DNA of 63,551 nt, counting the filler, from Conidiobolus incongruus B7586 (Eukaryota): assembly GCA_000697335.1 (NCBI GenBank). It is 27 parts of 27 records of this genome, joined end to end, with 100 filler letters (N's around TTAATTAATTAA, not from the genome) between each part and the next. Parts side by side here need not be neighbours in the genome. Positions count along the whole stretch, not along the records: positions 7,671 to 9,257 come from JNEM01005522.1; positions 9,358 to 10,386 come from JNEM01005523.1; positions 10,487 to 11,738 come from JNEM01005524.1; positions 11,839 to 14,888 come from JNEM01005526.1; positions 14,989 to 16,513 come from JNEM01005529.1; positions 16,614 to 18,187 come from JNEM01005530.1; positions 18,288 to 20,528 come from JNEM01005532.1; positions 20,629 to 31,466 come from JNEM01005533.1; 19 more parts are not named here. One strand, written 5' to 3'. Positions 7,671-58,296 of the stretch are shown here, piece by piece. The notes beneath the pieces are model-generated. The model was not told where the DNA came from, did not search any database, and saw only the letters and a program-made list of their open reading frames with translations. Numbering within the stretch: position 1 is the stretch's first letter; each line of letters begins with the position of its first letter. The position numbers and the translations under genes are program-made.

Positions 7671-7824
7671 TAATAACTAAATATTATTATATAATGATAT
7701 ATATTATTAATAAATATAATAGATTTTAATTATTTAATTTAAGTTTATTTTATTAAATATTTATTAAGTTATTAGTAGAAATATAAGTGTTTTTAATTTT
7801 ATAATTTATTTTTATAGGTTAGTA
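7671..7824 (+). mobile_element. Tc1 family A, 3' end only, abutting or inserted in the 5' end of the next copy
   Basis: Reverse complement of the terminus at 36631 (aagtgtttttaattttataatttatttttataggttagta), followed by TA. Confidence 0.7.
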
Positions 7825-7826
7825 TA

Positions 7827-9254
7827 TTATATTAGCTATTGGTTAATTTATTAAAACCCAAAATTTAACTAAAGTAAGTTATAAATTTACAGGTTTATAA
7901 ATTAAAAGGTTATAAATAACAAAACTTATATATATCTTTTTTTTTTCTTTTGTTGTATTGTATATATTATAAAATTATTAAGCTAATATTTGAAAATTAA
8001 TATTATAATACCTAAATCTCTCTCTAAAAAAGTTTACTTATATATTAATCAACTTTATAATAAAAATAAATTAACTTGTAAGATTGCTAAAATTATTAGT
8101 GTTAGCTAATCTACTATAGTTAAAGTTATTAAGAGTAATATTAAAGAAACATTTAAACTAAAACTTAAACATGTTAAAATTATAGATAAACATGATAAAA
8201 AGTATATTTGTAGATTAATTAGTATAGGTAAGTATAATACTACTATATAAGTGTAACAAGAATTATGAAACTATATAAGAATATTAGTTAGTATTAATAC
8301 TATTATATATACTTTATATTAGAATATATATTACTTATACTTTAAAAAAAACACTTTTAACTAAAGAAGTCTTATTATAAAGTTAAATAAGAGTTTAAAT
8401 GTTAATACTAAAGTAAAATTAAAATTAACTAGAGTAAAGTTATTTAGTCTAATGAAACAAAGATATGTTTTAATAAATCTAATAAAAAAGTTAGATGTTT
8501 TAAAAAAGATAAAAAACTACTTTATAACTATTATGTTATTATAACCCAAAAATATAATAATGGGTTAATTATAATTTATAGATGTATATTATCTTTAAGT
8601 ATAAGGTATTTTTATAGGGTTGATAAGGGAATTAATAGTGAGTTATATTAAAGTATTCTAAACAATAAATTGAAATAAAACTATTAAGTAATATAGATTA
8701 AAAAAATTAAATATTATTTTCTAACAAGATAATATACTTTGCTATACTATAAATTCTATTATTAAATGGTTTAAAAGTAACAAAATAACTATTATAAAAT
8801 AGCCTCTTTAATCTCTTAATTTTAACCTAATTAAATATCTTTACAATCAACTAAAAAAATTAATTAAAGTTTTCCCCCAGCAAAAAATTTAAATCAACTT
8901 TAAGAGTATATTTAAGAAGTTTAGAATAATATTAGTCCTACCTAATATAAAAAGATAGTTGATTCTATACCCCATAAATTTAAAGAAGTTAGAAAAACAA
9001 AAGATAAATATATTAAATATTAATTTTTCTATTAATACTAAAACCTACAAATTTATAACTTATCTTAAATATATTTTTAGTATTAATATATCAATTAATT
9101 ATTAATTAAATTTAACTATATATATTATATTATAAATAAAAAATATATATTAATTATATAGTTTAATATAAGTTTATTTTAATTAGAATTAATTAAGATA
9201 TTAATAGAAATTTATATATTTTTAATTTTATGACTTACTTTTACAGGTTAGTGT
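7827..9254 (+). mobile_element. Tc1 (DD34E) transposon relic, family A; dead transposase about 8008-9023
   Basis: Reversing transitions gives WSKVIWSDETK (tag agt aaa gtt att tag tct aat gaa aca), FQQDN, WPPQSPDxNPIE (tag cct ctt taa tct ctt aat ttt aac cta att aaa) and a C-terminal KG(G)xTKY*. There are 34 codons between the second D and the E. The 3' terminus is ...tgacttacttttacaggttagtg followed by TA. Confidence 0.9.
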
Positions 9255-9357
9255 ATGNNNNNNNNNNNNNNNNNNNNNNNNNNNNNNNNNNNNNNNNNNN
9301 NTTAATTAATTAANNNNNNNNNNNNNNNNNNNNNNNNNNNNNNNNNNNNNNNNNNNN

Positions 9358-10386
9358 TTTGTAATAGAAAATAAATAAATATTTAAATATATATTATATA
9401 AAAATAAAAATAAAATATAAATTTAATGATTTCCTTTAATATTAATAACTTTTTGCTATATTTTTAGCAAACTTCTAATACTTAAAAAATAGTTCTTTTT
9501 ATTAAAAACTGAAATTTAATATTTTACAAACTAATTAAATTTCCTTATAGAAATTTTCTTTTTTGTAAGCTAGTTTTTTAATTTCTTTAAGCAATTATTA
9601 TCAAATAGGTTATAATTTATGGAATACTAGATGTGGTAGTTTTTTCCAGTTATTTTTAACTAAAAAGTTTTTTATAGTTTTAGCTTTATATATTTTATAA
9701 TTATTATACAAAAATAATTGATTTTCTTAAAATATATTAAAAACACCAATTAAAAATATTTTTAATTAAAAAATAATATAAAGTTTATTATTAATTGATT
9801 TTCTTTCAAGAATTAAATAAAAATATTATATACTATTAAAATCTTTTATAATAATTAATATTTACTTATTTATAAAATAATTATTTAAAGGGATTTATAA
9901 AAGGGGTTGGTTTAACTTAAACTAACATATTGGTTTATATTTTAATAAAGGATTATACATTAATATTTAAGATTCATTAATTATAATTATATGCTATATA
10001 AGTTTAAACTTCTAATAATTTTTTAATAAATTTTGTGTAATAATAGCTATTTTAGATTTTTTTTAAACTTTATTTAAATTATAAACTATTTATTTTATAT
10101 TTTTATTTATTAATTTGAGTTGAAACTTAAATATATATAAAATACTTATAAAACTAATATTAAAATGCTTAGATAATTCTCTATCTGAAATAAAAAGGTG
10201 CTTTTTAATATATTTTTTCATTTTATTAATAATTAAAAGAATAACAATTAAAGTTGGTTTTTTAAATTTTAATAGATAATGGATAATTTTTCTCTTAACT
10301 TTAAAATAATTTACCAAGTGATAAATTGTTAATTTAAATAATACTTTATTATTAAAATTATTTGTAAATTTTAAATAATTTTAAAA
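9358..10386 (-). mobile_element. Mariner (DD34D) relic, family B, subfamily B1
   Basis: Track ORF 10090-10317 (ISDRELSKHFNIS, HTH-like) ends at a mutated W of the WVPHNL-like motif. Downstream 'aactggaaaaaactaccacatctagtattccataaattataaccta' is a degenerate WEKLPHPxYSPDYNP. Confidence 0.85.
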
Positions 10387-10527
10387 NNNNNNNNNNNNNN
10401 NNNNNNNNNNNNNNNNNNNNNNNNNNNNNNTTAATTAATTAANNNNNNNNNNNNNNNNNNNNNNNNNNNNNNNNNNNNNNNNNNNNATAAATTTTTACTT
10501 ATTTTAAATATATTTTTAATTTTAATA

Positions 10528-11738
10528 TTAGTATAAAAATTAAATAATGACATAATTTTAAAATTAAAATTAAATAAATAAATTAATAAATAATATATAG
10601 ATATTAATGAATAATATAAAATTAATATCCTCTTTTATTATTAATAACTCTTTTCTATACTTTTAATAAGTTTCTAATACTTAAAAAACAGTTCTTTTTA
10701 TTACAGACTAAAATTTAATATTTTATGAACTAATTTAATTTGTTTGCAAAAATTTTTTTTCCTGTAAGCTGTTTTTTTAATTATCTAAAACAATTATAAT
10801 CATATGGGTTATAATCAGGTGAATATATTAAATATAATAACTCCCTTTAATTTATTTTATATAAAAAATTTTTTATAACTTTAGTTTTATATATTTTGTA
10901 ACTATTATACAAAATAATAGGTGTTTTTGATTTATATTAAAAACACAATTTAGAAATTGTTTTATTTAAAAAAATAATATATAACTTACTATTAATTGAT
11001 TTTCCTTAAGATATTAAATAAAAAAACCATATAACATTATAATAAATTATAATAATTAATATTTATTTATATTCAAAATATTTATTTATTAGAATTTATA
11101 AAAGGGATTAATTTAGCTTAACCTAACATCTTGTTTTATTTTTAAGTAAAGGATTATATAAAAGAACCTAAGATTTATCAATTATAAGTATTTATTATAA
11201 AAACCTTTTTTTTAGTTATACCTTAATAGGTTTAGTTTAGTTATAGCTACTTTAGTTTTCTTTTAGGTTTTTATTAAATTATAAAATATCTATTTTATAT
11301 TTTTATTAATTAATCTAAGTTTAAACTTAAGTAAATATAATATGCTTATATAATTAAAATTAAATTACTTTAATAGTTCTCTAACAAAAATAAAAGGGTA
11401 TATCTTAATATATTTTTTGACTTAATTGTTAAGTGAAAAAATGACAATAAAAATTAGTCTTTTAGATTTTGGTAAATTTTAAATAATGTCCCTTCTAGCT
11501 TTAAAATCACAAATCTAGTAATATATGGTATTTTTAGATAAAACATTGTTTCCATAAACTATTTGCAAGTTTTAGATGATTTTAAAAGGTTTATAATTAA
11601 ATTTTAAAGATATAAAAATAAAAGCCTTTTGATAATCACAATCTAGTTTAAGTATGATTAAATTTAAACATAAATTTTAAAATCAAAATATTTTAATAAA
11701 AAAATAATTAAAATTAAATATATATATAGTTTGAAAAT
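10528..11738 (-). mobile_element. Mariner relic, subfamily B2
   Basis: Terminus ttagtataaaaattaaataatgacataa matches 53428 and the reverse complement of 21417. Retains tat tca cct gat tat aac cca tat gat tat (YSPDYNPxDY) at about 10796-10825. Confidence 0.88.
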
Positions 11739-11838
11739 NNNNNNNNNNNNNNNNNNNNNNNNNNNNNNNNNNNNNNNNNNNNTTAATTAATTAANNNNNN
11801 NNNNNNNNNNNNNNNNNNNNNNNNNNNNNNNNNNNNNN

Positions 11839-12182
11839 AAAACTTTCTAATTAAAAATAACTGGAAAAAACTACCATATCTAGTATATTCCTTAGATTAT
11901 AACCTATATAATTATAATTGCTTTAGGTAATTAAAAAACTAGATTACAGGAAAGAAAATTTTTATAAAAAAATTTAATTGGTTTGTAAAACATCAAATTT
12001 CAGTCTTTAATAAAAAAACTATTTTTTAGGAATTAGATTTTTACTAAAAATATAGCAAAAAGTTATTAATAATAAAGGAAACTATTAAATCTATACTATA
12101 TATTTATTTTTATATACTATATATTAAAATATTTATTAATTTTAAATTGCAAAAATTTCTTATTATTAACAATATAGAGTAA
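11839..12182 (+). mobile_element. Mariner relic B1, 3' part
   Basis: aac tgg aaa aaa cta cca tat cta gta tat tcc tta gat tat aac cta ... tgc ttt agg taa tta aaa aac tag is a transition-mutated NWEKLPHPxYSPDYNP..CFRQLKNW. The end tatagagtaa-ta is shared with 33068. Confidence 0.85.
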
Positions 12183-14149
12183 TATTATCATAGTTTTTAA
12201 TTTTAATAATGTATTTTTATTAACAATATTATGTTGTATAATATCAATATTTGTTTCAAAATTTTTCAACCTTAAAATTCTTTTGTATTAATTATAACAT
12301 TTAATATAACATTATTTTAAGCATTTTGCTTCCATTAAGTCTTGCTATTACTTGTAAATCAAATAATCTGAAGTTAAATTGAAATTGTGAATTATATCTA
12401 ATTATAATTTAATATATAAGTTAACCTATATAAATGGTATTACCATTTTTACAATTATATCAAAATAACCAAATATATTAATATAATGTTATATATAAAC
12501 CAAAAATAAATTTTTAAAGGATTCATTTATTAAAAGAGATTATATTCCGATAATACTGCGCTATATATATCAGGTTCAACTAATCAATTGATGATATTTT
12601 CAAATATATAGCAATCTCATATTTTTAATTGAATTGAATTAGTGAAATAAATTTTATATATTATTCCCTTTTAAAAATCTTGAGCATTTATATTTAAGCA
12701 AAATTTTTTACTCTTTAATATCTAATATTAGTTATTATAAATTTAAAATAATTTTCAATTTTTTATTAAGTTTAATATTGTTCAGTGGGATTTCAATTTA
12801 ATTAATAATTTAAAAATGATCAAATTATTAATAATGTCATAAAACATCCAGTTTATATTTGTCTAAAGATTTTAATATGTTTTTATTATTTACATTTATA
12901 GTAATAGTATATTTGATTCATTATATTAAATATTTATTTAGAGAAACCAATATATTTTTATTGATTTTTGCTCAAATTTGTATTTTCAGAATTTATATAA
13001 ATATTATGGAAAATAATTTATATATGTTAAATAATATATAAAGTTCAATATTTTCATAAATATATATGTATTATGGCTTGACTTTTTTTTGATATTGAAA
13101 TATATTATAAAAAATATTTTATTAATTAAAAAATATATTAGTAATTATTAGACTGCCAATCAAAACAATAATTTGATTTATTAATATCTTTAAATTGACT
13201 ATAATTTTATGTAAATTCTTTTCTTTATTATTTTTGTGATTTTAATTATAATAGAATTACAATGAAGTCTATTATTTTTGATACATTTTAGTCTTTCTCA
13301 ATTTAAGTAAAAAAATTCAATATTTATTCAACAATAATTTATCACCTTATTTCACGAACTCAGTATATATCAATTTTTTTATTTATTATTAATAAAATAT
13401 TTTAATTTTATAATAATTATTAATACAAACTACTTGTTTGTTATGATTCTTAATCTTGAAATATAAAAATTATCTATATTTAAATACTTAATAATAATAC
13501 CATACCCATTATTATATTAATTTCAATAGTTAGTCCGATATTTTACTGATTTTTTGAGTTTGATTAATAAAAGAATTATCATCTAATATAAGCCAATAAA
13601 ACCTTATTACGAAATTTCATATTTATTGTTCTATTAATGGATTTGAAATGAACAGGATATATAATTGTTTCTGGAAAAAAAGACTTTTTTAAGGATTAGG
13701 AAAAATCAGCCATTTTGAATAATAGAGCAATATTTAAAAACATTTTAAATTGATTTTTTGGTAGTGAAAAACTAATAAATAAGATATAGCATTAAATTTT
13801 TTTAAATAAAATATTTCATACTTTCTATATAATTCAATTTTTTGGGTTATTAGGAAAATACAGAATTTATATTTTTAAGGTAAATTTTAAAATATTAAAT
13901 AACTATAAGTGATTTGAGAAATATTTTTTATTATTAGTTTAGAAAGAAAAAATGGAAAATTTTTTAATTTCGGATTTTTCAAATAAATTTAAAGTTTGAA
14001 AAATCAAATATACATAAAATATATAGGAGAATTAATATCTTGAATATATATATAACTTATAACTATTTTTTATTGAAATATTTTTAAAATTTGAGGTTAA
14101 ATTAAACTAAGCTTAAACGAAATAATGGTTATCTAAAGTTTTTATTTTA

Positions 14150-14700
14150 ATATTATTGTAATTTAATTATAAATTCTTTAAAATCATTTAAGATTTAAAA
14201 ACAGCTTATTAAAATAATATTTTTTCTTAAGTTATCCTTTAGAATTAAATTTATTATTTTAAAATTAAAAAGGGTACTATTTAAGATTTTTCTAAATCTA
14301 TAAACTAATTTCTATTGTAATTTTTTTATTGATTATATAATTAAAAAAATATATTAAAGGATATTTCTTTATTTTAAATAAATAATTATCTAGTTAATTT
14401 AATATCAATTATATAGTTGTTTTATATATTTAACCTTAAACTTGGATTAATTAATAGCAATATTTAATAAATATCTCATCATTTAACCAAAGTTTAAATA
14501 TTTAAATAGCTATAGTTAAATAAAACCAATAGAATTTTTATTAAAAATAATACTTCTCTTAGTAAACTATTATTATTAATATATTATAAATATTTTATAT
14601 CCTTTTATTTAAGAATTTAACAAAATATTAAATTAAACTAAAATATCCCCTTATATAAAAATTAATAAATAAATAGTATCTATTATAATAAAATATAATT
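14150..14700. repeat. Unclassified degenerate repeat, family E
   Basis: 14200-14282 is the reverse complement of 16614-16690 (aatagtacccttttaattttaaaat vs aataatatcccttttagttttaaaat). Weak resemblance to a hAT C-terminus on the minus strand, not convincing. Ends are approximate. Confidence 0.4.
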
Positions 14701-14994
14701 ATATATATATTTCTTATTTAATTTTTAAAAATAAATAAATTAATACTAAATTTAATTTGTTTGTTTAAATAATTTTTAATTAGTTTTTTATTATTAATTT
14801 AGAATATCTATTTTTTTTCAAAATATTTTCAAAATATATAAAATTAAACTTATGAAAGATTTTTATATTAAAAAAGCTAAAAAAACTANNNNNNNNNNNN
14901 NNNNNNNNNNNNNNNNNNNNNNNNNNNNNNNNTTAATTAATTAANNNNNNNNNNNNNNNNNNNNNNNNNNNNNNNNNNNNNNNNNNNNTTAAAA

Positions 14995-15000
<6 letters not shown>

Positions 15001-15028: not shown

Positions 15029-15029
<1 letters not shown>

Positions 15030-15033
<4 letters not shown>

Positions 15034-15200: not shown

Positions 15201-15229
15201 TAAAATATCTTTTATAAAAATTACCTATA

Positions 15230-15497
15230 TATTAACTTTTAAAAATAAGTCATAAAATTAAAATTACTTATATACTTACTTATTTCTTAAATAATCCTTA
15301 ATTAAATGAATTTAAATTAAAATATTAAATTTACCTATATTATTTGATTATAACTAAAAATATTTGATTATATTTTATTAACTATTGGTTAATATATTAA
15401 AACTTAAAATTTAACTAAGGTGAGTTATATATTTATAGGTTTATAAATTAAAAAAGTATTAATAACAAAATTTATATATATCTTTTTTTTCTATTAT
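15230..15497 (+). mobile_element. Tc1 family A, 5' end, interrupted by a second Tc1
   Basis: Terminus tattaacttttaaaaataagtcataaaatt and inner repeat aaggtgagttatatatttatagg at about 15417. Matches 48810-49020. Confidence 0.8.
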
Positions 15498-16513
15498 ATA
15501 TTAGCTTATAAAAGTAGGTTATAAAATTATGATTATATATATTTTTATCAATAACTTAGTTAATTCTTAATTAAATTAATTTAAATTAAAAATATATAAT
15601 AAAATTATATTATTTATTTATAATTAAATATTTTTGATCTAATAATATTAACTTTTAGATGATATATTAAAATTTAAATTTTATCTAAGATAAGTTATAA
15701 ATTTATATATTTTGGTTTTAGAAAAAAAATTAAAACTTAATATATTTATCTTTTGCTTTATTAACTTTTTTAAGTTTATAAGATATAGAGTCAACTAACT
15801 TCTTATATTAAGAAAGATTAATTTTGTTTTAAGCTTTTTAAATATATTCTTAAAGCTTATTTAAATTTTTTATTAGTGGGAAAGCTTTAATTATTTTTTT
15901 AACTAATCTTAAAGATATTTAATTTGATTAAAATTAAAAGATTAAAGAAGTTATTTTATAACTATTATTTTATTATTTTTAAACTATTTGGTAATAGAAA
16001 TAATAATATAACAAAAAGTATTATTTTATTAGAAAATAATATCTGATTTATTTAACTTAGATTATTTAATAATTCCTTTAATTCATTGTTTAAAATATTA
16101 TAGCATATCTTAATATTAATTCCCTTATTAATTTTATAAAAATATCTTATACTAAAAGATAATATATATCTTTAAATTATAATAAGCCTATTATTATATT
16201 TTTAGGTTAAAATAACATAATAATTATAAAGTAATTCTTTGTTTTTTCTAAAATATCTAGCTTTTTTATTAGATTTATTAAGATATATTTTTGTTTTATT
16301 AAACTAAATCACCTTACTCTAATTAATTATAATTTAACTTTAGTGGTGATATTTAAATTCCCATCTAGCTTTTTAATAAAATTTCTTTAATTAAGGGTGT
16401 TTTTTATTAAAGTATAAGTAATATATATTATAATATAAAGTATGTATAATAATATTAATATTAACTAATATTTTTATATAGTTTTATAATTCTTTTTATT
16501 TTTTTATAATAGT
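15498..16513 (-). mobile_element. Tc1 family A relic (3' two-thirds)
   Basis: Colinear with 19104-20120 from the terminus (tattagcttataaaagtaggttataaaattatgattata) through the DDE region. Confidence 0.88.
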
Positions 16514-16693
16514 NNNNNNNNNNNNNNNNNNNNNNNNNNNNNNNNNNNNNNNNNNNNTTAATTAATTAANNNNNNNNNNNNNNNNNNNNNNNNNNNNNNN
16601 NNNNNNNNNNNNNAATAATATCCCTTTTAGTTTTAAAATTACAAATTTAGTAATATATTGTAATTTTAAATAAAATATCATTTTTATAAATTA

Positions 16694-17860
16694 TTACTTT
16701 ATAATTTAAATAATAGGAATTTTTTACAATTAAAAAAATAAATATTTTAATATTTAAAAAATAAAAATAAATATATATTATAAAATTAATAATTTCTTTT
16801 ATTTCTAATTACTTTTTACTATATTTTTAATAAAGATTTAACACTTAAAAAATAATTCTTTTTATTAAAGATTAAAATTTGATGTTTTACAAACTAATTA
16901 AATTTTCCTACAGAAATTTTCTTTCTTCTAAGCTAGTTTTTTAATTACCTAAAACAATTATAATTATATAAGTTATAATCTAAAGAATATACTAGATGTA
17001 GTAGTTTTTTCCAGTTATTTTTAATTAAAAAATTTTTTATAACTTTAAATTTATGTATTTTATAATTATCATGTAAAATAATAGGTGTTTTTAAATTATA
17101 TTGAGAATACCAATTAGAAATAGTTTTATTTAAAAAAAAATATAAAGTTTACTATTAATTAATTTTTTTTAAAAATTAAATAAGAATAACATATGTTATT
17201 ATAATCTATTATAACAATTAATATTTGCTTATCAATAAAATATTTATTTAAAAGGATTTATAAAAAGGGTTGATTTAATTTAATCTAACACTTTGATTTA
17301 TGTTTTAATAAAAGATTATACAAAAGAATTTAAGATTCATTAATTATAATAATTTATTGTAAAAGCTTTAGTTTCTAGTTATACCTTAGTAAGTTTTGCT
17401 TAATAATAACTACTCTAGCTTTTTTTAAACATTAATTAAATTATAAGATACCTATTTTATATTTTTATTAATTAATTTTAATTTAAACTTTAATATATAT
17501 AAAATACTTATGTAACTAATATTAAAATGTTTTGATAATTTTCTAACTAAAATAAAAAGGTATTTTTCAATAAATTTTTTTACTTTATTAATAATTAGAA
17601 AAATAACAGTTGAAATTAGTTTTTTAAATTTTAGCAAGTTTTAGGTAGTTTTTTTCTTAGCCTTAAAATAATTTACCTAGCAATAAATTGTTGATTTAGA
17701 TAATATTTTATTATTAAAAGTTGCTTGTAAATTTTAAATAATTTTAGAAAATTTATAGTTAGGTTTTACTAATACTAAAATAAACACTTTTGATGGTTAT
17801 TATTTAGTTTAAGCATAATTAAATTAAATAACTAATTTTAAAAAAATATTTTTTTAATCA
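16694..17860 (-). mobile_element. Mariner relic B1, near full length
   Basis: Track ORF 17452-17637 ends in aaa TAG gta tct tat aat tta (ancestral KWVPHNL). Keeps tta cat gat aat (LHDN) at about 17064-17075 and the degenerate YSPDYNP motif. Confidence 0.9.
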
Positions 17861-18287
17861 AAAAAATAATTTAAAAATATTTATTTTCTTATTTATTTTG
17901 TATATATTTTTTATTTGAAATTAATAATATATTAAAAAAATCAGAAATTAAAAAATTTCTCATTTTTTTAATTTTATGGTAATATTTACATTTTAAATGA
18001 TTTTCAAGATTTTATAGTTAAATTTTGAAAATATAAAAATAAAAACCTTTTGATAATTAATATTTAATCTAAATATTATTAAATTTCAATATAATTTCTA
18101 AAATTAAAATATTTTAATAATAAAAATAATTAAATTAAATATATATTAGCTTATAAAAATAAGCTATAAAATAATAATCATAAATATNNNNNNNNNNNNN
18201 NNNNNNNNNNNNNNNNNNNNNNNNNNNNNNNTTAATTAATTAANNNNNNNNNNNNNNNNNNNNNNNNNNNNNNNNNNNNNNNNNNNN

Positions 18288-18956: not shown

Positions 18957-19103
18957 TATATATATTAATTATGAATTTAAATTTAATTTTGAATTTTAAC
19001 CTTAAAATATTATATTTTATTGATATATTTGATAAAAAATATAATTATTAATATATTATATTAAATTTGATCAATTAACTTAAAAAAATAAAATCATAAT
19101 ATA

Positions 19104-20528
19104 CACTAGCCTGTAAAAATGAGTTATAAAATTATGATTATATATATTATTATCAATAACTCTGTTAAATCTTAATTAAATTAATTTAAATTAAAACATA
19201 TAATAAACTTATATTATTTATTTATAATTAAGTATATTTGATCCAATTATATTAAGTTTTAATTGATATATTAAAGTTTAAATTTTACCTAAGATGAGTT
19301 ATAAATTTGTGAATTTTGGTTATAAAAAGAAAATTAAAACTTAGTATATTTACCTTTTTCTTTCTTAACTTCCTTAAGTTTATAGGGTATAGAGTCAACT
19401 AACTTCTTATATTAAGAAGGATTAATTTTGTTCTAAACTTCTTAAATATATTTTTAAAGCTCATTTAAATTTTTTATTGGTGGGAAAGCTTTAACTACTT
19501 TTTTTAACTGATCCTAAAGGTATTTAATTAGATTAAAGTTAAAAGATTGAAGAAGCTACTTCATAACTATTATTTTATTATTTTTAAACCATTTGGTAAT
19601 AGAAATAATAATATAGCAAAAAGTATTATCTTATTAGAAAATAACATCTAATTTATTTAACCTATACTATTCAATAGTTTTTTTTAATTCATTGTTTAGA
19701 ATATTTTAGTATATTTTAGCATTAATTCCCCTATTAACTTTATAAAGATACTTTATACTAGAAGCTAACATATATCTCTAAATTATAATTAACCCACTAT
19801 TATATTTTTGGGTTGAAATAACATAATAGTTACAAAGTAGTTTTTTGTCTTTTTTGAAATATCTAGCTTTTTTATCAAATCTACTAAAGTATATTTTTGT
19901 TTCATTAGATTAAATAACCTTGCTCTAATCAATTTTAGTTTAACTTTAGTAGTAACATTTAAACTTTTACCTAACCCTACAGTAAGATTTCTTTAGTTGG
20001 GGGTGTTTTTTCTTAAAGTGCAAGTGATATCTATTATAATATAAAGTATATATAATAATATCAATACTAATTAATATTCATATATAGTCTTGTAATTTTC
20101 TCTATACTTCTATAATAGTATTATATTTACTTATATTAATTAACCTACAAATATACTTTTCATCATGTTTATTTATAATCCTAGTATATTTAAGTTTAGG
20201 TTTAAATATATCCTTACTATAATTTTTAATAGCTTTAACTATAATAAACTAGTTAACACTAGTAATTCCAACAATCTTATAAGTTAATTTACCTTTATTA
20301 TAGAGTTGATTAATATATAAGTGAATCTTTTTAGAGAGGGATTTAAGTATTTTAATACTAATATTATTTAAAATAATAATTTACAATAATAATATTAGTA
20401 TAAATATATATAATTTAATAAAAGAAAAAAAATTTAAGTAATTTTTATTTTATATACCTTTTTAACTCTTAAACCTATAAATTTATAACTCACCTTATTT
20501 AAAATTTAAGATTTGATATATTAACCAA
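19104..20528 (-). mobile_element. Tc1 family A relic, near full length, one of the least mutated copies
   Basis: TA followed by cactagcctgtaaaaatgagttataaaatt. The minus strand keeps att acc aaa tgg ttt, aaa aca ccc caa cta and gat gaa. Colinear with the other family A copies. Confidence 0.92.
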
Positions 20529-21417: not shown

Positions 21418-21639
21418 TAATTATCTTTTTCTATATCTATTATTTTTAAATATAATACCCCCACCTTAGTGTTATTAAAATCACCTACTAATTTATCACC
21501 AGTTATATTATTCCATTTATTTATTTCATTCGTAAAATTTATATTACTATAATTTCTTTGCTTTATTTATTTTCACTCATTATTATATAATTTTACAATA
21601 TAACTCTTATTTATTCTAATTTGCCTAATTTATAATTAA

Positions 21640-40227: not shown

Positions 40228-40365
40228 NNNNNNNNNNNNNNNNNNNNNNNNNNNNNNNNNNNNNNNNNNNNTTAATTAATTAANNNNNNNNNNNNNNNNN
40301 NNNNNNNNNNNNNNNNNNNNNNNNNNNTTTATTAAAAATAAAAAAATAATTAATTTTATATTATA

Positions 40366-44886: not shown

Positions 44887-46455
44887 NNNNNNNNNNNNNN
44901 NNNNNNNNNNNNNNNNNNNNNNNNNNNNNNTTAATTAATTAANNNNNNNNNNNNNNNNNNNNNNNNNNNNNNNNNNNNNNNNNNNNTAAATTTTATATAA
45001 GATACACAAGTGTTTTAATTAACTTATATATTATTATTTATAGTCTAAAATAAGCTTAAAAAATGTTTATATCAAATAAAAACAATAATTAAATTATAAT
45101 AAGTTAAAATAGAACCTACAGAGACTATAATATTTTGGTATTTATATTTGATTAAAATTAAATATTTATTTATAACATATATATATATATTTAATTTTTA
45201 ACAAGAGTATTGCTATTATTCTAAGTTTATTTTTAATAAACTCTTTGTTAATAATTTTACTAGTATATTTATTATATTATTAAATAATATAAAGGATATT
45301 AATCAAGGTAATTTTAATTAAAAAAATTCTATTTATATTATTTTAAGTAAATTTAGCAAGATTAATGATATGGTTAAGTTGAAGGCTAAATAATTCTTCA
45401 TTTAAAGTTTTGGTATTCTTATATAATAAATATAAAATATATAAATTGATAAGTGAATTATTATTATTATTGAAAGCAATATAATTTTCTAATTACTTAT
45501 TTTAAAACTTATTTGGTTTTTATTTTCAAAAATAAAATTTTAATGATTTATAAATATTAATTAAAAAATAATGGTAATTAAAAGATAGTAGTTAAGTTAA
45601 AAATATATTTAATAAATGTTAAAAGAATATAAAGTATATTAATATATATAGTTAAGTGGGTAAGATAGTTTAATATTATTTATATATAAAAGAAAAAAAC
45701 TATGGGGTTAAAAATAATTTAAGATTATTCTTTTATTTAGTAAATAAATTAAAATAGTATAGCTAGTCCTTTTATAATAAAACTAATTATTAATAAATCT
45801 TAATCATTATTTTTTTAATTTAATTAAGCAAAGAAAAGATAGATGATATTGAATAATATATACATTTGAAGTTTATAATTAGAAACATGATTTAAATAAT
45901 AAAGATAGCTTGGTAAAATATTATTATATTATAAATATAATAGAGTTTATTAAGAGAATAGTAATTTTTGAAGGTTTATATTATAAGTAAATATGATATT
46001 CTTAATATCATCAAATATAGTTGTTTTAACCTTATTTATTTTTATTATTATATATAGTTTAAGTTTACTTATAAACTAATAGTGTTTTTCAGCATTTTTT
46101 ATATTATTAATCCTAACTATAATATTATTAAACTTATTAATATAATCTATTATTATTAAAATTTATCTTATTTTTGAAAGTTTATTTTTATCATTTTTTT
46201 ATTAAAGAAAATAATAAAAAACATTACAAACAAATCAAAGAATTAATTAAGAGTAATTAAAAATTAATTGATGATATTAAAGTATATTTTTACCTAAGTT
46301 AATATATTTTTATTTAAGTAATTAAAGAATATTTTAGTGAAAAGATTATTAAAATNNNNNNNNNNNNNNNNNNNNNNNNNNNNNNNNNNNNNNNNNNNNT
46401 TAATTAATTAANNNNNNNNNNNNNNNNNNNNNNNNNNNNNNNNNNNNNNNNNNNN

Positions 46456-48100
46456 AATATAAAGGGATTTTATAATGGTAAAAGAAATTATATTTTAATT
46501 AAATATGTTTTTTAATTTTTTAACAAGTATTACAAAAGTTAATATAATATTTAATAGTTTTATTTATTTAAGATTAATAATATTATATAAGATAATTAAA
46601 AATAATATTATATTTAAGATATTTTAAGATAAAGATAATATAATTTTCATAAATGAATAATTCATATAGTTTATTTAATTTAAGTATATAAAAACAAAAT
46701 ATATAATCAGCTATGTTATATATTAGGTTATTATATAGTTATTAATATTGTAATTTTGTAATTAAGTTATTATTAACTAAGTCATTAAAATTATTTGATA
46801 TTTAATAAATAATATTAAAATATTAGTTTTTAATATAGCTTTATTTAATATAGTTAAGTTGTTTTTTGTAATATTGAGAGTTTAAATATTAATTATTATA
46901 AGATTAAATTAAAAAGATAATTTATGAATAAAAAGATTTAATTTGTTAAGTTTATAACAAACTTTAATATTATGCTTATTAATAATATTTAAATATTATA
47001 TTTAAATATAAGAAAATTTTTTAATGTTTTAATTTATTTTAAAAGATATTAATTAATCTCAAAAATAACATGATATTTTAATAAATAGTAATATTAATAT
47101 TTAAGGTTTAAAATAATTAAAAGTAGTTTTTTATTATGAATATTATATTTATATTATATATTATTTAAGCTCTTGAATATAGATTCTATTAAATATTAAC
47201 TATTTAAGTAATTTTATCGAAATATAACATTTATAATAAAATCACAAGTGTTTATTATAATATAAATATTTAAATTCAAATTAAGTGAAAGATTAAGGTT
47301 AAATAAAAAAATTCTTTTAATTATTATAAAGTTACTTAAAAATCTTTAAACTAATTAAATTTAATTTTTTTGCTTATAAGTTAATTTAATAAGATTATAA
47401 TTTTAGTAAAACTTATGATAACATAATAATAATATTTAAAAACACCTAGATATTATTTAACTTATTTAATATCTATAAAAATTAGATAATTTTTAATTAT
47501 TATTTTTTTTAAATTAATATAAACGCCTTTTCTTAATATAATATAGTTAAAGTCTTTAATATAGTTTAAAAATAGGTGAGTTTTTTATTTGTTAACATAT
47601 AAATAATTTCCTTAAAAATATTAAAATACTAATTAGAAATGATGTTTATTTTTATTTTTATTCTTTAAATATATTAATAAACTATCTAGGTAAATATAAA
47701 CAAAAAACATATCTTTGAAGATTAATTTTATTTTTTATTAAAAGCTGAGGGTAATACTTTATATTTTTATTAAAGGTTTCTCTAAATAAAAATATTAAAA
47801 AGATAATGGAAAAAAATAAAAACCTTAAATCCAAAGTAAATACAATATTGTTAATATTTGTTTATTATATTAAATATTAAAAAAAATTAAAAATCTTGTA
47901 TAATTAATTAAAAAAAATTATTGTTTAATAATAGCTATAAGTAATTTTTAATAATATTATTCAATTATTATATATCTATTAAAAGTTAACAATTAGAAGT
48001 TCTGTTTTTAATAATAAATATAAATAAGATAAATAAAGCGTTATATTTATAGATTAGCTTTTTTTCTTTAATTTTTCAAGAATTTCTTAAAAAGCTTTTA
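46456..48100 (-). mobile_element. Ty3/Gypsy LTR retrotransposon pol relic (RT, connection, integrase Zn finger)
   Basis: Minus strand, in order: IDI**LNNII (DxRxLN), FTLDLR, SF**KIKLIFKDMFFVYIYLDSLLIY (FQR..YLDD) at about 47670-47750, *VK*YLGVFKYY, then YYINFCNTC*KIK..KIP (integrase CxxC) at about 46465-46560. RT before integrase is the Gypsy order. LTRs not seen. Confidence 0.85.
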
Positions 48101-48799
48101 TTTTAATATTAGATATTTAGAAATAAAGTAGTTTTTTAATTTTATATATATGTAATTTTTAGTTTAAGGTTAATTAAACATTAAAAAGATAGTTTACGAA
48201 ACGTTTTATTTTAAAATTAATTAGCAAATTTAAACTTAATTTCATTAACATATAAGTGTAAGTTTTTGACATTAAATTCTTTATTGTTTTTATTTATATT
48301 ACTTAATTTGTTTCTTTAATGTAATTTATTAATCAGGTTATTTTCAATTAAAATTTAAATATCAAAATTAATATTAAATTAATCTTAATAATTAATATAA
48401 TTATCTATTTTTATTAAAGGTTTATTAAAATTAAGTTTATATTGTTTTAATTCTTTAATCTTTATAAAACTTATATAAAATATAGAGCTATCTTAATTAA
48501 CCTATTTAATATTAAATATAATTTATAATAGGACTAAAATTATATTGTATTAGATTAAAACAATAATAGAATTATAATAATCTAAAGTAAAATCTATAAA
48601 AAATATAATGTTATAATATTAATATTTTATTTGAATTAGGGATTTATTTATAAAAAAAATTATTTTTAATTTTTANNNNNNNNNNNNNNNNNNNNNNNNN
48701 NNNNNNNNNNNNNNNNNNNTTAATTAATTAANNNNNNNNNNNNNNNNNNNNNNNNNNNNNNNNNNNNNNNNNNNNAATTGTAAATCAAAATTATTTATA

Positions 48800-50316
48800 T
48801 ATTTACCTCTATTTTAAATTATTCTTAATTAAATAAATTTAAATTAAAATATATAATTTATTTATATTTGTTGATTATAACTAATTATATTTGATTATAT
48901 TTTATTAATTATTGGTTAATATATCAAAACCTAAAATTCAATCAAAATAAGTTATAAATTTATGGATTTATAAGTTAAAAGGGTATAAATAACAAAACTT
49001 ATATATATCTTGTTTATTTGTTATATTATATATATTATAAGACTATTAAGCTAATATTTTGAAATTAATATCATAATGCTTAAATCTCTTTTTAAAAAAG
49101 TTAACTTATATATTAATTAACTTTATTATGAAAATAAATCAACTTATATAATTGTTAGAATTAATAATATTAGTTAATCTACTATAGTTAGGGCTATTAA
49201 AAATAATATTAAAAAACACTTAAACTAAAACTTAAATATGTTAAAATTATAGATAAATATAATAGAAAATATATTTATATATTAGTTAATATAGGTAAAT
49301 ATAATACTATTATAAAAAAATAACAAGAATTAATAAAAATATATAAGAATATTAACTTGTAATAATATTTTTATATATATTATATTAAAATAAATATCAC
49401 TTAGGTTTTTAAAAAAATATCTTTAACTAAAGAAGTTTTATTATAAGGTTTAATAAGAGTTTAAATATTAAAACTAAAGTTCAATTAATATTCACTTGAG
49501 TAAAGTTATTTAATTTAATAAAACAAAAATATATCTTAATAAATTTAATAAAAAAGCTAAATGTTTTAAAAAAGATCAAAAACTACTTTATAACTATTAT
49601 GTTATTATTATCTAAAAATACAATGGTGAGTTTATTATAATTTAAGGATATATATTATCTTTAGATATAAGATAACTTTATAAAGTTAATAGTGGAATTG
49701 ATACTAAGATATATTAAACTATTTTAAATAATAAATTAAAAAAATTATTAAATGCTATAGATTAAATAAATAAAATATTATTTTCCAACAAGATAATAGC
49801 TTTTACTATATTATAAATTCTTTTATTAAATGGCTTAAAAATAACGAAATAACTATTATAAAAAAATATCTTTAATTTTTTCATCTTAACCTAATTAAAT
49901 ATCTTTGAAATTAACTAAAAAAATTAATTAAAGTTTTTCCCAAATTAAGAATTTAAATTAACTTTAAAAGTATATTTAAAAAACTTAGAATAATATTAAT
50001 TTTACTTAACATTAAAAGTTAATTAACTTTATAACTTATAAGTTTAAAAAAGTTATAAAAACAAAAGGTAAGTATATTAAATATTAATTTTTCTATCAAT
50101 ATTAAAACTTATAAATTTATAACTTATTTTATATATACTTTTAGTTTTAATATATCAATTAATAATTAATTAAATTTAACTCTATATATTATATAATCAA
50201 TAAAAGATATATATTAACTACATAGTTTAATATAAGTTTATTTAAATCAAAATTAATTAAGATATTAATAGAAATATTTTTATTTTTAATTTTATAACTT
50301 ATTTTTTAAATTAGTG
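48800..50316 (+). mobile_element. Tc1 family A relic, near full length; ATG retained at 49076
   Basis: atg ctt aaa tct (ancestral MPKSLS) and ttc caa caa gat aat (FQQDN) are intact; 3' terminus ...aaattagtg followed by TA. Another family A terminus begins at about 50323. Confidence 0.9.
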
Positions 50317-50854
50317 TAATTAGACTAATTGGTAAAGATAAGTTATAAATTCAAAAACTCTCATATTCTTACTAATAACTTAATTAATATTTAATATAAT
50401 AAACTTAAATTAAAAAATTAAAATCTATTATTTTTATTAATAATATATNNNNNNNNNNNNNNNNNNNNNNNNNNNNNNNNNNNNNNNNNNNNTTAATTAA
50501 TTAANNNNNNNNNNNNNNNNNNNNNNNNNNNNNNNNNNNNNNNNNNNNATAATTTATTATAAAAAATTTTGAATTTTATTTTATTAAATATAATATAAAA
50601 TTAATAAATATTATAATTTAAATAAATATTTAATATTTAATTTTATATTAAATTTTTATTTTTAATTCTTTTATTTTATTATTAAATTAATTATTTTGAA
50701 TTAAATTTGAATTAGTCAAAATAAGTATAGGTACTTTATTAAAACTTAGAATTCCTGAACTTAAACATTGATTAAAATTTAAGGGGTTGACCATAGGTAT
50801 ATATAAGCTAATTGTCTTGTAATTTAATACTTTTTTCAAATTAAAATAACAAAA

Positions 50855-51713: not shown

Positions 51714-53427
51714 ACAAGGGTGATTTTATTAAGTATGTCACCTTTATAAATGTTGATTTTATCTGGAATGTTTATTTTTTACAATTAACCTCATATAAAA
51801 TTGTGAAATGTTTTTTATGAAATCATTTTTGCTGAAATCTTTAATAAATCTTAGATTTGGTTATTAAATATATTTTATATTTAATGTATTTTCAATAATA
51901 ATTACTATTTTTTGGGTAAATTATTTCAAAATAGAAAAATAATTATAGATTTTACAATTAAATCGAATCATTAATGGTTTAATTGTTTTATATCTAGATT
52001 TAATAGATAAACTTGTGAGTTGTATTATTTATTTTTAATTAATATCTTTTAATAATTATAATTAACTTTGAATTTATATTATATATAAAATGAACTTGAT
52101 AATTCTGATTCCCCATGAGAAGTCATTATGTTTTATGTTGATAAATTTTAAAATTACAAACCAAAGTACTGTTTCTACAATGTCCAATACTGCTAATATT
52201 TAGCAGTTTTCAATAACTTTAAGTTGATGTAAAAAAATATCATAATCCATTATAAATAAATTATTTGAAATAAGAGCATTTAGATATCAAATGATAATAC
52301 TTTTAAATATATAATTTTTCTGATTTAATGAATTATATTGTGTCATTATTAATCTAATTATTTTTGGTATTTTATAGTAAAAAGTTGGGGTAATAAGAAT
52401 GTAGTTACTATAATTATTCTATCATATCAGCTTTAAAGTGATTATTAACTATATAAAAGATGATTAAACAGCTTTAATCAAATATTATCTTGCTAATATT
52501 ATAACACTTTCTATGTTTAATATTTTTCAATTTACTAAATTAAAGTTATAAGTGAATGATAATTACAATATTATCTCATTTGAACCAGTTTTATTCTTAA
52601 AAGTGTAAGTATATCAATAGCATTATTTCAACAAAAAATTTTCATTATTCGTATTATAAAAAATTATATTTCATAGTAAATTATTTTAATTACTTTTGAA
52701 TTTTATTCTTTAGTTTAAACTTAATTGATAAAAAAATAATAATTTTTTTATTGTGAAAAATTCAGTAAATTGATCGGATTATAATGAATAATTTCTCCGT
52801 TTAATTTGAAAAAAATAATCAATCATGTTTTTAAATAATATTAATTACAATTTAAAATTCATTTTTCAAGAGATATTTAGTTTGAATTATAATAAGCATC
52901 CTTTTCTTAACAACATATACTGATTTATTTGGTAATAATCTTTAAATCATTGAGATTTTATTGAATATATTAATGATAATTCAAAACTGTAAGATTTCAA
53001 AATTAAGGGTCGAATTCGATTGGATAGTTAAGGCAATAGAATTCGATAGATTATAACATTCGCTGAATCAACTATTGAAATAATTTACTTTCAACCTTTT
53101 TATTATAAATCTCAACAATTACGTAAAATTAAAATTAAAATAAAACTTTTTAGGAAATATTAAAATTAATTACAGTATCTAAAATTAATTTGAATGCAGA
53201 TTTTATGACTTATATTAAACAATCTTTTTAACAATAAAATAAAATGATCAAAATAGTAGTTTCTAATTCCAAAGAACTGATAAATTGATTATAATAATGA
53301 CTAAGAATAATATTATATGATAGTATTCTCTTGGTATAGAAATTCTAAATTGATATTAAAAATATTGAGCATTAAACCAAATAATTAATTTAACAAAGCT
53401 GATTGATATTCTAATTGAATTGTTTTT

Positions 53428-54576
53428 TTAGTGCAGAAATTAAATAATAGCACAATTTTAACATTAAAATTAAACAAATATATTAATAAATAATATATAA
53501 AATTTAATTAAGAATATAAAATTAATACTCTCTTTTATTATTAACAACTCTTTTCTATTCTTTTGGTAAGCTTCAAATACCTAAAAAATAGTTTTTTTAT
53601 TAAAGACTAAAATTTGATATTTTATAATCTAATTGAATTTATTTACAAGAATCTTTTTTCTTACAAGCTAATTTTTTAATTATCTAAACCAATTATAGTC
53701 ACATAATTTATAATTAAGTAAATATATTAAATATGCTAACTCTCTCTAGTTTTTTATATAAAAAAGTTTTTAATAGCTTTATTTTTATGTATTTTGCAAT
53801 TATTATACAAAATAATAAATATTTTTAATTTATATTAAAAACTCCTTTTAAAAATTATTGTATTTAAAAATATAATATATATAATATACTATTAATTAAT
53901 TTTCTTTAAGATATTAAATAAGAGAACTATATAGTATTATAATATATTACAACAATAAATATTTATTTATATTTAAAATATTTATTTATTAGAATTTATA
54001 AAAGGGATTAATTTAATTTAACCTAATATTTTGTTATTTTTAGGTAAAAAATTATATAAAAAAATTTAAGATTTATTAATTATAAGTATTTACTATAAAA
54101 ACCTTTGTTTTTAGTTATACCTTAATAAATTTAATTTAGCTATAATTACTTTAGTTTTTTTAAGCTTTTATTAAATTATAAGGTATTTATTTTATATTTT
54201 TATTAATTAATTTAAGTTTAAACTTAAGTATATATAATATGTTTATATAAATAATATTAAATTATTTTAATAGTTTTTTAACTAAAATAAAAAGAGATTT
54301 ATTAATATATTTTTTTTATTTTATTAATAAATAAAAGAATAATAGTAAAAATTAATCTTTTAGATTTTAGTAAATTTTAATTAATATCTTTTCTTGTTTT
54401 AAAATTATAAATTTAGAAATATATAATAGTTTTAAATAAAACACCATTTTTATAAGCTATTTACAAGTTTTAAATGATGGTAAAAAATATATAATTAAGT
54501 TTTAAAAATATAAAAATATAAGCTTTTTGATTAATATTATCTAGTTTTAACATAATTAAATTTGATTATAAATTTG
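53428..54576 (-). mobile_element. Mariner relic B2, near full length
   Basis: Terminus ttagtgcagaaattaaataatagcacaa. The minus strand keeps tgt gac tat aat (CDYN), aat tgc aaa ata cat and ata cct tat aat tta. Colinear with 10528-11680. Confidence 0.9.
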
Positions 54577-57399
54577 NNNNNNNNNNNNNNNNNNNNNNNN
54601 NNNNNNNNNNNNNNNNNNNNTTAATTAATTAANNNNNNNNNNNNNNNNNNNNNNNNNNNNNNNNNNNNNNNNNNNNATATTCATTATTAATATTTATCTG
54701 AATATTTAATTATAATCATAAATATTTATTAATCAAATAATATAAATAGTTTTAATATTAAATATTTTTCACATAAATATTATATCAAGTTATATTATAT
54801 AAATATAAAAAAACAAAAAATTACCACACTAAATGATATTAAAATAGATTAATTATATATTATACAAAAGTTAAAATTTAAAAATTATTAACGAACGAAA
54901 TTTAATAATAAAAAAATTTCAAAATTATAATTCAACCAAATAATATATATATAATATAAAACTGATAATATTTATCTTGTCAAATATATTTTGTTTTTTT
55001 GGACGAATTTTTAAAACATGTAAATATTTTCATAATATAAATAAAATTTCTATTTTATTAATCAATAATACCTGATTTTAAGAATTCTTTCCTTTATAAG
55101 CATTATATTTATTTATTATTAATAATAATATTTATATAAGTTATTTTATGGTAATTATATATAATATATATATTTAATTTAATTTTTTTGGATAAAAAGT
55201 TCTTTACAAAATTATAAATATTTTAAATTTTTAAAAAAATATCAAATTTATTATTAGCTAATTTACAAATAAAAACTAAAAAATAAGATATACTTTATTA
55301 AAATCTATTATAATATTTGATATAAATTTACAAAAAATATTGTTAAAAGATTAGTTCTTAAAACCCTGAGATATAATATTATATAATATATTTTATTTCA
55401 AATCAAATAATTCCTACTTTTGATGTTAATTTAATTATACAAATAATATTAATTCAACTGATAAATATATTATCACCCTTTTAATTCTTATTAATTTTTA
55501 ATTTCTATCTTTATTGTTAAAATTAAGGTTATAATTATGAATATTATAATACACTGATAATATCTTATATAGAATCTAATTTATCTATATTGACTCATTT
55601 GTTTACGAAGCATGAATAAACTTTGCTCGTTGATATATTAACTTGCTATTTGTATATTATACTAAGTCTTCCTTTGTATTATATTGGTTTTATTGCCCAT
55701 ATGATTATAAATACTTATTGAATTTATAAAAAAAGGAAGTTTTAATGTATTTTAACTTTTTTTTTAATGAATAAATAAAATATTATATCAAAATATTTTA
55801 TTTTTGGTTATTTCTTAATTGATGGTATTTAAATTAATTATTTTAATATAATTTTAATATATTATTAAATTATTAAATATCCATTTTATATATTTATTAA
55901 TCAAAACAAATTTAAACTTTAATATACATAATATATTTATATAATTATCATTGAATTATTGTGATAAATATATAGCTGAAATAAAAGGATGGTTTTAATA
56001 GATTTTTTTATTTTTTTAATTAAAAACACAATAGAAATTAATCTTTACATTTTGGTAAAATTTAAATAGTATTCTTTTTAGTTTAAAGTAATAAATTAAA
56101 TTATAAATAACTCCTTTAAATATTAAATTCGTAAGCTGTTTATAAATCTCATATGATTTTAAAATATAGTTCAGTTTTAATAATTTTTTAAGATTATAAT
56201 TAATATTTAATTTAAGCATAGTTATAGTTAATAGCAAATTTTTAATTAAATATATTTTAATATAAAATTTATTATAAAAGAATATATATAATATGAAAAT
56301 ATTAAATTTCATATTTTTTTTGAATATAATATATTTTTTATAATTACAAATATATCAAAATATAATTAATTAACAAGTTTAAGATTTTTTAAATATTTTG
56401 ATTAATATTCTGATATTTTAAAAAATACAAATTTAATCCCAGAAATTAATTTATAAAATAATATCAAATTTTAATAAGGAAAAGATTAATAGATTTAGAT
56501 ATTGGTTGTTATAATAGTGTAGTATTTTAAATTTCAAAAATAATTTCTATGAAATATATTTTAATTTAATAATAAATTTTATTAATAATGAAAATTTTTT
56601 AAATTATATTTTATTCAGGTATTGATAAAAAAATTTATAACAAAATTATTTATTTTATATATATTTATATATATATATNNNNNNNNNNNNNNNNNNNNNN
56701 NNNNNNNNNNNNNNNNNNNNNNTTAATTAATTAANNNNNNNNNNNNNNNNNNNNNNNNNNNNNNNNNNNNNNNNNNNNTTAATTATTTTAGATTTAATAT
56801 TTTGAAATAATATGATAAATATTATTTTTATAAGGTTCAATTATTTTTGAAAAATTTATATTAATTAATTTAATATATCGATTAGCAAAATAATTATTAA
56901 CGATAAAAATAGACTATGTTATTTTCAAAGATTGAAAAATAAATTTTAATATTAATATTGATCAATTTGCAAAATCAAAAAAAATAATAATTAGAATTTT
57001 TTAATAAATAATCTAAAAAAATTTATAAAATTATGATTAAACAATAAAAATGGATAAACTTATAATGTTTAATCATATCTAGCTTATCTTTATATAATAA
57101 TTTTAAGTAACAATTAATTTATAATTTATAATTAATAACTATTTAAAAAAATATAAGTCAATTAAATTTATATCAATTAATATAAAAAGTTAATAATTCA
57201 AAATATAAATATTAATTTGATAAATTCCTTTTTATTATTTAGAAATGTAATTCATAAGAATTAATTTAATTGAATATAAAAAAATATTAAATATAAAATA
57301 TAAAATTAAATATAAATTATTATATCAATATGTTAATATTTGTTATATCTGTTTGGTATATTTTTTGATAAGTCCAAATATTTAAAAACAATTGTATTT

Positions 57400-58296
57400 A
57401 TCAAAAAATATAATTAAATATTTTATAAACTGATTATATTTTCTATTAAAAATTTCTTCCTTACAAGATTATTTTTAATTACCCAAAGCAATTATAATTA
57501 TAATTATAATAGTTATAATTTAAAAATATAATGAAATATAATGGTTGTTGAAGTTATTTTTGATTAACAAGTTTTTTAACACTTTTATTTTATTTATATG
57601 ACAATTATTATTTAAAATAATTTATTTCCTTTGATTTTATTAAAAATATTAATTAAAAATAATTTTTTTATAAAAACATTAAAAAATTTATTATTATTAG
57701 TTTATAAACAAATTTAAATTATTAATTGCCATTATAATTTATTCTAGTTATTAATATCAATATATCAATATAATCTATTTTAAAAGTAATTTATAAAGGT
57801 TAATTTGGTTCAATCTAGTGACTTGAATTATATTTTAGTAAACGATGATTAAAAAAAATCAGGGATATAAAAAATAATAATTTATCATAAAAGCTTGATT
57901 TCTAACTAAATCTTCATCCATTTTATATAGTAATAACCATTTTAACTTGTTTTTAAACTTAATTTAATTTATAAGTTACTTATATTATTATTAATAAATT
58001 ATTAATGAAAATTTAATTTTAAAATATTCTTATATTGCTAATATTAAACTATTTTATTAATTCTCTAATTGAAATAAATGGGTGATTCTTAATAATTTTG
58101 TTCATTATAATAATAGTAAAAATATATTAATTAAATTTACTTCTTTAGACATTAGTTGTTGTAAAATAGTTTTATTCTTAGTTTTAAATAGTTTACCTAA
58201 AAAAATTTATTAATTAAAATCATCAATATTATTAAATAATATTTGTGAATTTTTAATATTTATAGAGGATTCAGGTTTTAATAATAATAATATTTA
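57400..58296 (-). mobile_element. More divergent mariner relic (third subfamily)
   Basis: aatttcttccttacaag.ttatttttaattacccaaagcaattataatta matches the C-terminal block of family B; looser colinearity through the HTH region. Confidence 0.7.

Follow-up and report, generated by a model that had tools for sequence, protein, structure and literature searches.

Whether a fungus outside the Dikarya can disable its own transposons by mutation aimed at repeats is the question raised by the 63,551-nt stretch of DNA analyzed here (the window), in which every copy of the DNA transposons Tc1 and mariner is decayed. The 27 contigs that make up the window measure 1.0–10.8 kb each, and at each of the 26 junctions stands a 100-nt spacer, consisting of TTAATTAATTAA flanked by N runs; the window is not a single locus, and most transposon copies take up whole small contigs. 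The transposon content comprises nine copies of Tc1 (three subfamilies), nine of mariner (two main subfamilies, with one copy split by a complete Tc1) and three relics of long terminal repeat (LTR) retrotransposons. In each dead copy, between roughly half and two thirds of the C and G have disappeared through C-to-T change on both strands. The outcome resembles repeat-induced point mutation (RIP), a process accepted in a different group of fungi, although RIP itself is not shown, and the best explanation is likely a methyltransferase-coupled process that operates without RID.

The host is a fungus of the Conidiobolus lineage (Entomophthorales, Zoopagomycota), near to but apparently distinct from Conidiobolus coronatus, judging from two of its proteins. 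UTP4 (27565–29853, minus strand) shares 502 of 593 residues (85%) with C. coronatus KXN73798.1, compared with 26–30% identity for the named ascomycete matches, and the main exon of NSA2 (24275–24859, minus strand) encodes 192 of 194 residues identical to KXN73797.1. In an NSA2 tree of 22 rows, comprising the window protein and 21 named proteins that were selected by the authors from the listed matches, the window protein groups with C. coronatus with support of 100/98, and no ascomycete occurs among the 120 NSA2 matches listed. An ascomycete host is rejected by the UTP4 identities and the NSA2 tree, and the non-Dikarya host suspected in the initial annotation is thereby upheld. The mariner copies at 20629–21430, on the contig of NSA2 and UTP4, and at 53400–54576 are the only copies that share a contig with host genes, and because of them the repeats can be assigned to the host.

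Substitutions were polarized by calling the ancestor of each copy from the other copies, for 17 copies with the split mariner omitted. At ancestral C (n = 2700 observations) there are 1358 C>T, 55 C>A and 15 C>G changes, and at ancestral T (n = 8800) there are 152 T>A, 199 T>C and 30 T>G. Retention counts against a deRIP consensus are biased, as losses shared by all copies are invisible to them, and they were replaced by fixed-flank and fixed-ancestor counts. For the latter, Tc1 bases were set by 53 residues that are conserved across 18 relatives, all of them intact and full-length, an ancestor that was used because sites lost in every copy could not otherwise be seen. In this set 271 of 420 C/G are now T/A, C>A and C>G account for 13 and 4 changes respectively, and at T (n = 370) there are six T>A, six T>C and two T>G; every change other than C>T is at most 3%. 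The initial annotation described the copies as destroyed mostly by transitions toward A/T, which the polarized counts bear out, but the raw transition share within subfamilies is only 0.68–0.70, a modest value because the copies are old (4–5% A<->T).

The sequence context of the loss is broad yet ordered. In the fixed-ancestor Tc1 set 80 of the 86 CpA cases are lost, with 8 of 10 CpA sites gone from all copies, as are 71 of the 141 CpC cases. Fixed-flank pairs give losses, biased low, of 0.58 for CpA, 0.42 for CpT and 0.18 for CpC, and no shared CpG survives. Across the two kinds of count, CpT and CpC stand at a loss level of 0.4–0.5 alongside full CpG loss; the order is CpG≈CpA>CpT>CpC with all contexts affected, and the 5′ base has a weak effect (0.35–0.47). 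The near absence of CpG reported earlier holds, with observed against expected numbers of 1/54.8 in Tc1, 0/30.8 in mariner (1 against 86 for the two together) and 1/11.1 in the pair of gag relics. The observed/expected ratio of CpA/TpG in repeats is 0.57–0.68.

This pattern has to be set against a background that is itself poor in GC. Intergenic DNA is 10–15% GC, and since it is already AT-rich, neither AT-richness nor a preponderance of transitions is evidence by itself; transposons that started at approximately 33–35% GC might simply be decaying to an intergenic level of 10–14% under AT-biased mutation acting genome-wide. The GC contents are indeed alike, at 12.9% in the repeats (24,936 nt) and 14.2% in putative unique non-coding DNA (15,560 nt). 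However, the repeats hold 7 CpG against 104 expected and 27% of their C precede A, while unique non-coding DNA holds 52 against 78 expected, 47% of its C precede A (p = 3e-64 for C before A, 3e-15 for CpG), and its CpA observed/expected ratio at equal GC is approximately 1, a contrast sharpened by the omission of relic-like stretches (21480–22000, 30000–30950, 42983–43740, 44987–46355 and 59644–60689) from the author-chosen unique set. That set was derived from 16 candidate stretches, of which the pol relic was moved to the repeats and one was cut at 14000, and one stretch was added. At the fourfold-degenerate sites of four genes, retention of C is highest when A follows (64 C, 82 T; C/(C+T) 0.44) and lowest when G follows (27 C, 108 T). 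Drift of the whole genome toward AT does not account for the pattern, since CpA is retained both at synonymous sites and in unique DNA that is just as AT-rich.

The rates lead to the same point. At equilibrium, the repeat spectrum would give a GC of 1.9% (upper value 3.6%), compared with 14% in unique non-coding DNA, and GC loss in repeats is 4.5–9 times what a 14% background allows, provided that the background is near equilibrium. Apparent allelic differences near NSA2 offer genome-wide drift some support, as 12 of 16 are transitions, which matches the share seen when copies are compared, with CpG or CpA as the context of 10 of them; however, the ratio of transitions (per C/G) to A<->T changes (per A/T) is approximately 11 for these alleles (12/358 against 2/682) and 40–70 for repeats, the allelic control being tiny (16 sites) and partly coding. 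The depletion fades within a few hundred bases beyond element ends. Hypermutation is confined to the repeats, and genes and unique DNA keep CpA. The claim that flanking single-copy genes are clean is correct for NSA2 and UTP4, which are unmutated controls, but it does not extend to most genes, which do not flank repeats because the window joins separate contigs.

An assembly artefact was rejected, as contigs from four DNA runs of one sample match the unique DNA with 0–1 differences over approximately 1.9 kb, although this sample may be the source sample and hence not independent. In run X1, transitions make up 365 of 498 variant places.

Transitions are copy-specific, having arisen in each copy after duplication. 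Among informative columns, 32 of 264 transitions follow the subfamilies compared with 45 of 79 A<->T changes (p = 4e-15), which agrees with the earlier observation that different copies keep different ancestral bases and speaks against inheritance of shared mutations. No strand bias is seen in any of the 17 copies (lowest p 0.065), and no same-strand clustering of residual losses extends beyond 3 bases, though clustered bursts could escape detection because saturation would hide them. Copies are unequal in their load of losses (p = 1e-8), and this load shows a weak positive correlation with the number of private A<->T changes (rho 0.40, p = 0.11). Under a plain clock, C>T would have to be 42 times as fast as A<->T change.

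With a rough probability of 0.6, these observations reflect RID-independent, methyltransferase-coupled hypermutation of repeats in a Conidiobolus-lineage fungus. Repeats would be methylated at CpG by a DNMT1-type enzyme and at CpA>CpT>CpC by a Dim-2-type enzyme, and these methylated cytosines would subsequently turn into T with no part played by RID. The loss would accumulate gradually, probably during vegetative growth, as with Dim2 in Zymoseptoria, instead of occurring in a single burst at the sexual stage. The two-layer scar, in which full CpG loss accompanies the CpA>CpT>CpC series, would be the residue expected of DNMT1 together with Dim-2.

Candidates for these enzymes come from the congener C. 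coronatus; DNMT4 in the published nomenclature is taken here to be the RID/Masc1 class. The supplements of PMC10538959 record a DNMT1 (KXN74494), three UHRF1 entries, HELLS and two DNMT2 in this species, and their table marks Dim2, DNMT4 and DNMT5 as not detected; in the tree from the same source, KXN73869 lies at the base of the Dim-2 clade with support of 99.9/97. Dim-2 in early-diverging fungi is also cited by PMC7862722. According to the survey in PMC4352252, CpG signatures go with DNMT1-class genes and CpA/CpT signatures with RID, and in Zymoseptoria Dim2 is described as driving C>T at CpA in repeats during mitosis (PMC8016269).

Several points weigh against methylation-coupled loss. The identity of the enzymes would be carried over from C. 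coronatus and not taken from the host, and the table entry for Dim2 in that species disagrees with the tree placement of KXN73869. C. coronatus, with these enzymes, was scored ‘no_rip’ in the screen of PMC12543289, and the Zymoseptoria mutator, at >98% CpA as reported in PMC8016269, is far narrower than the spectrum in the Conidiobolus window. CpA loss is about equal to CpG loss, which spontaneous deamination of mostly-CpG methylation would not yield. As to tempo, a model of burst plus clock beats the plain clock (p = 0.017; intercept 0.35), and two copies with 3 private A<->T changes in approximately 675 sites have already lost 34–42% of scoreable C/G. On the supporting side, a gamma (rate-heterogeneous) clock comes within 1.7 log-units of burst plus clock, its shape parameter having stayed at the start value; a gradual clock thus fits nearly as well as a burst. 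Slow deamination of methylated repeats had been named in the initial annotation as the main alternative to RIP; mutation coupled to methylation proves at least as well supported, but deamination limited to CpG cannot explain the loss of CpA.

A true RIP-like defence, in which duplicates would be recognized by homology and mutated in bursts, probably in the sexual stage, by a Dim-2-type or other enzyme without RID, appears rather unlikely. CpA is the top non-CpG target, as such a defence would have it, the changes are copy-specific with a load that differs among copies, C>T runs at 40–70 times the A<->T rate with the burst intercept given above, and no two copies in the window exceed approximately 87% identity. 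RIP in Pezizomycotina is set off in premeiotic nuclei by homology alone and has clustered, strand-biased bursts as a feature, and neither strand bias nor same-strand tracts are seen here, though many rounds would erase them. The Neurospora work in 10.1101/115501 describes DIM-2 as able to mediate RIP without RID and to methylate all contexts; it also ascribes to DIM-2-mediated RIP a very strong CpA preference, whereas the contexts in the window are broad. An index-based RIP signal covers 24.2% of windows in Zoophthora radicans according to PMC11105155; on the opposite side, RID/Masc1 is placed mainly in Pezizomycotina by PMC5751038, and the high-depth repeat at 21924–22251 retains CpG, but may be under selection or too short. 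If homology-triggered, RID-independent RIP did act through a Dim-2-clade enzyme, repeat-induced mutation would predate the Dikarya, with the Neurospora DIM-2 branch ancestral and RID a later ascomycete addition, a scenario that can be entertained tentatively. Of the homology-directed defence first proposed, the RIP-like outcome outside the Dikarya stands, while the lack of strand bias, the broad spectrum and the rise of loss with copy age give no sign of a homology-directed or sexual-stage trigger.

It is also quite improbable that a cytidine deaminase of the AID/APOBEC type, or a repair defect in heterochromatin, mutates the repeats with no involvement of methylation. Every context is affected, as this would allow, but the preference is set by the 3′ base (CpG, CpA), whereas AID/APOBEC-like deaminases read the 5′ base, which has little effect here; DNA transposons and retroelements are also affected alike, and on both strands. 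Genome-wide AT-biased mutation on its own is very unlikely given the retention of CpA and CpG in unique DNA of the same GC.

The Tc1 copies are assigned to their family by a frame of approximately 340 aa, by the two domains of its best intact relative and by inverted repeats in one copy. A full HMMER scan gave 56 matches, from which the 18 intact full-length relatives used for the ancestor were taken; a word-index search that used the decayed Tc1 alignment found no relatives. Best among the intact relatives is P0164, a colinear match (E = 2e-38) that carries HTH_Tnp_Tc3_2 and DDE_3 domains, both above cut-off, and is identical at 121 of 338 positions to the copy at 19081–20528 (minus). That copy has the frame 19331–20350, the only one of the nine Tc1 copies free of indels, each of the others having several, which qualifies the claim that frames are largely preserved. 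The frame contains 20 stops in 340 codons, of which nine face Trp and three face Gln in P0164. The ORF (open reading frame) start at 8008 in the copy at 7671–9257 (plus) has its ATG changed to ATA, and the copy at 48776–50448 (plus) is the sole one with an ATG (49076), which is kept in one of the five copies covering the site, and with FQQDN (approximately 49783), intact in one of nine. The complete copy at 36628–38207 (minus) has imperfect terminal inverted repeats of approximately 230 bp that are 71% alike; it is inserted at a TA within a mariner. With 27 A<->T differences and 23 transitions between them, these repeats are too imperfect and were rejected as a pair identical at insertion. The remaining copies lie at 15440–16513 (minus; partial, at a contig end), 18288–19080 (plus; 3′ part), 31567–32577 (plus), 40328–41699 (minus) and 43829–44886 (minus). 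A Tc1 3′ end is tandemly duplicated (approximately 270 bp) at 15226–15496, adjoining the first of these.

The mariner copies show the decay at single motifs. The WVPH site, whose ancestor is presumed from the known motif, reads TAG GTA TCT TAT (17452), TAG ATA TCT TAT (20652, 42171) and TAA ATA CCT TAT (54189), with TGG or CAT in no mariner copy. YSPD is intact in one of the nine mariner rows covering it, at approximately 10820 in the copy at 10487–11738 (minus), which matches DDE_3 with E = 0.005; these readings, along with the Tc1 ATG and FQQDN, were found exactly as the initial annotation gave them. The copy at 20629–21430 (plus) points to a large family, with a summed contig depth of 13,000–51,000 in run X1 compared with 30–50 in unique bins, a figure that is not a copy number. 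The copy at 53400–54576 (minus), also on a gene-bearing contig, has a flank carrying CpG up to approximately 53200 and none inside the element. Further copies are found at 9358–10386 (minus), 11839–12190 (plus; 3′ part), 16614–17900 (minus), 32678–33090 (plus; 3′ part) and 41800–42882 (plus), and the copy split by Tc1 has its 3′ piece at 36300–36627 and its 5′ piece at 38208–38481, both minus.

The three LTR-retrotransposon relics are all on the minus strand. Two are gag-region copies (5590–7175, with a weak Retrotrans_gag match, and 38683–40225) that are 76% alike and differ by 199 transitions and 129 transversions; the third is a decayed Gypsy-like pol relic (46456–48675) with a weak RT_RNaseH_2 match, the same CpA/CpG depletion, and a stretch with motifs like those of reverse transcriptase. 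The depletion attributed to Gypsy copies is present in the relics, but the label itself is weak, with E values of 0.008 (Retrotrans_gag) and 0.047 (RT_RNaseH_2) on separate contigs. The stretches 44987–46355, 14000–14888 and 42983–43740 have the same depletion and no partner in the window, and are probably further relics.

Other repeats also occur. The segment 21924–22251 (approximately 330 bp) is part of a high-depth repeat (approximately 200 times unique depth) with a broken reading frame and no match in Pfam or Rfam; CpG survives both here and in its other copies. Within 21456–22223, the window carries T/A at each of the 15 transition places with the best support, where most copies carry C/G; nine of these places are in CpA context. 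A 356-bp duplicate (30988–31343 and 59967–60318) is 80% alike, with 39 transitions and 23 transversions.

Among host genes, an arrestin-like gene (2285–3727, minus) and a mitochondrial carrier gene exon (61806–62498, minus) served as controls for synonymous sites. The order NSA2–UTP4 (24275–29853) corresponds to the consecutive accessions KXN73797 and KXN73798 in C. coronatus, and the neighbourhood looks conserved; an intron-bearing gene lies between the two at approximately 26400–27300 and a tRNA gene at 25857–25928 (minus). The gene-like segment 22721–23736 has a paralogous contig approximately 87% alike. Over 24305–25317, same-sample contigs differ from the window at 16 places, which suggests two haplotypes approximately 1.5% apart. 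A metagenome scan with NSA2 gave no Conidiobolus-like contig usable as an orthologous neutral control (best 87%).

Because Conidiobolus grows in culture, it becomes directly testable outside the Dikarya whether a mutagenic repeat defence can arise from DIM-2-type methylation alone, and whether sex or homology pairing is a requirement. A 2017 work by Clutterbuck, according to its title, deals with CG hypermutation in ‘some lower fungi’ and may include Conidiobolus. No copy-level report for Conidiobolus was found in a literature search that left subscription journals largely outside its coverage. What the window adds, through copy-level counts, is a strong mutator, restricted to repeats and with CpA among its targets, in a zygomycete lineage; the congener, per the published table, lacks RID. 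The idea of RIP in early-diverging fungi has a precedent in PMC11105155, where RIP is proposed from indices for Z. radicans, and action outside the Dikarya is suggested with caveats. A 2025 screen of 1,239 genomes describes RIP-like signatures as confined to Ascomycota, with none in C. coronatus (PMC12543289); by its account, k-mers of repeats and non-coding DNA were compared on scaffolds over 50 kb. Such a screen would likely miss a genome of this kind, because intergenic DNA is 10–14% GC and the mutated repeats lie on contigs of 1–2 kb.

Among known systems, the window resembles in several respects the mitotic Dim2 mutator of Zymoseptoria tritici as described in PMC8016269, which is likewise repeat-restricted, has CpA as the main non-CpG target of C>T and leaves CpA down and TpA up in transposons; the Dim-2-clade enzyme recorded in C. 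coronatus would be the parallel to Z. tritici Dim2. Z. tritici is an ascomycete with RID and spares CG, whereas in the repeats of this zoopagomycete host CpG has disappeared and losses extend to CpT and CpC. Neurospora crassa RIP, with its RID branch and its DIM-2/heterochromatin branch, by the account in 10.1101/115501, shares C:G>T:A change on both strands, copy-specificity, CpA preference, the sparing of genes and the turning of Trp and Gln codons into stops, but the contexts here are broader, no strand bias is seen and the congener table is without RID. Transposon CpG loss linked to DNMT1-class methylation is common to Tuber melanosporum (CpG and CpA) and to the CpG-only signatures of basidiomycetes in PMC4352252. 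CpG-only decay creates CpA/TpG, however, and in the window these are depleted; the survey links the CpA component to RID, of which the congener table has no entry. Finally, Z. radicans and other Entomophthorales belong to the same order, and the case made for them in PMC11105155 rests on composite indices, 1-kb windows and domain architecture, whereas the window gives polarized counts at the level of individual copies.

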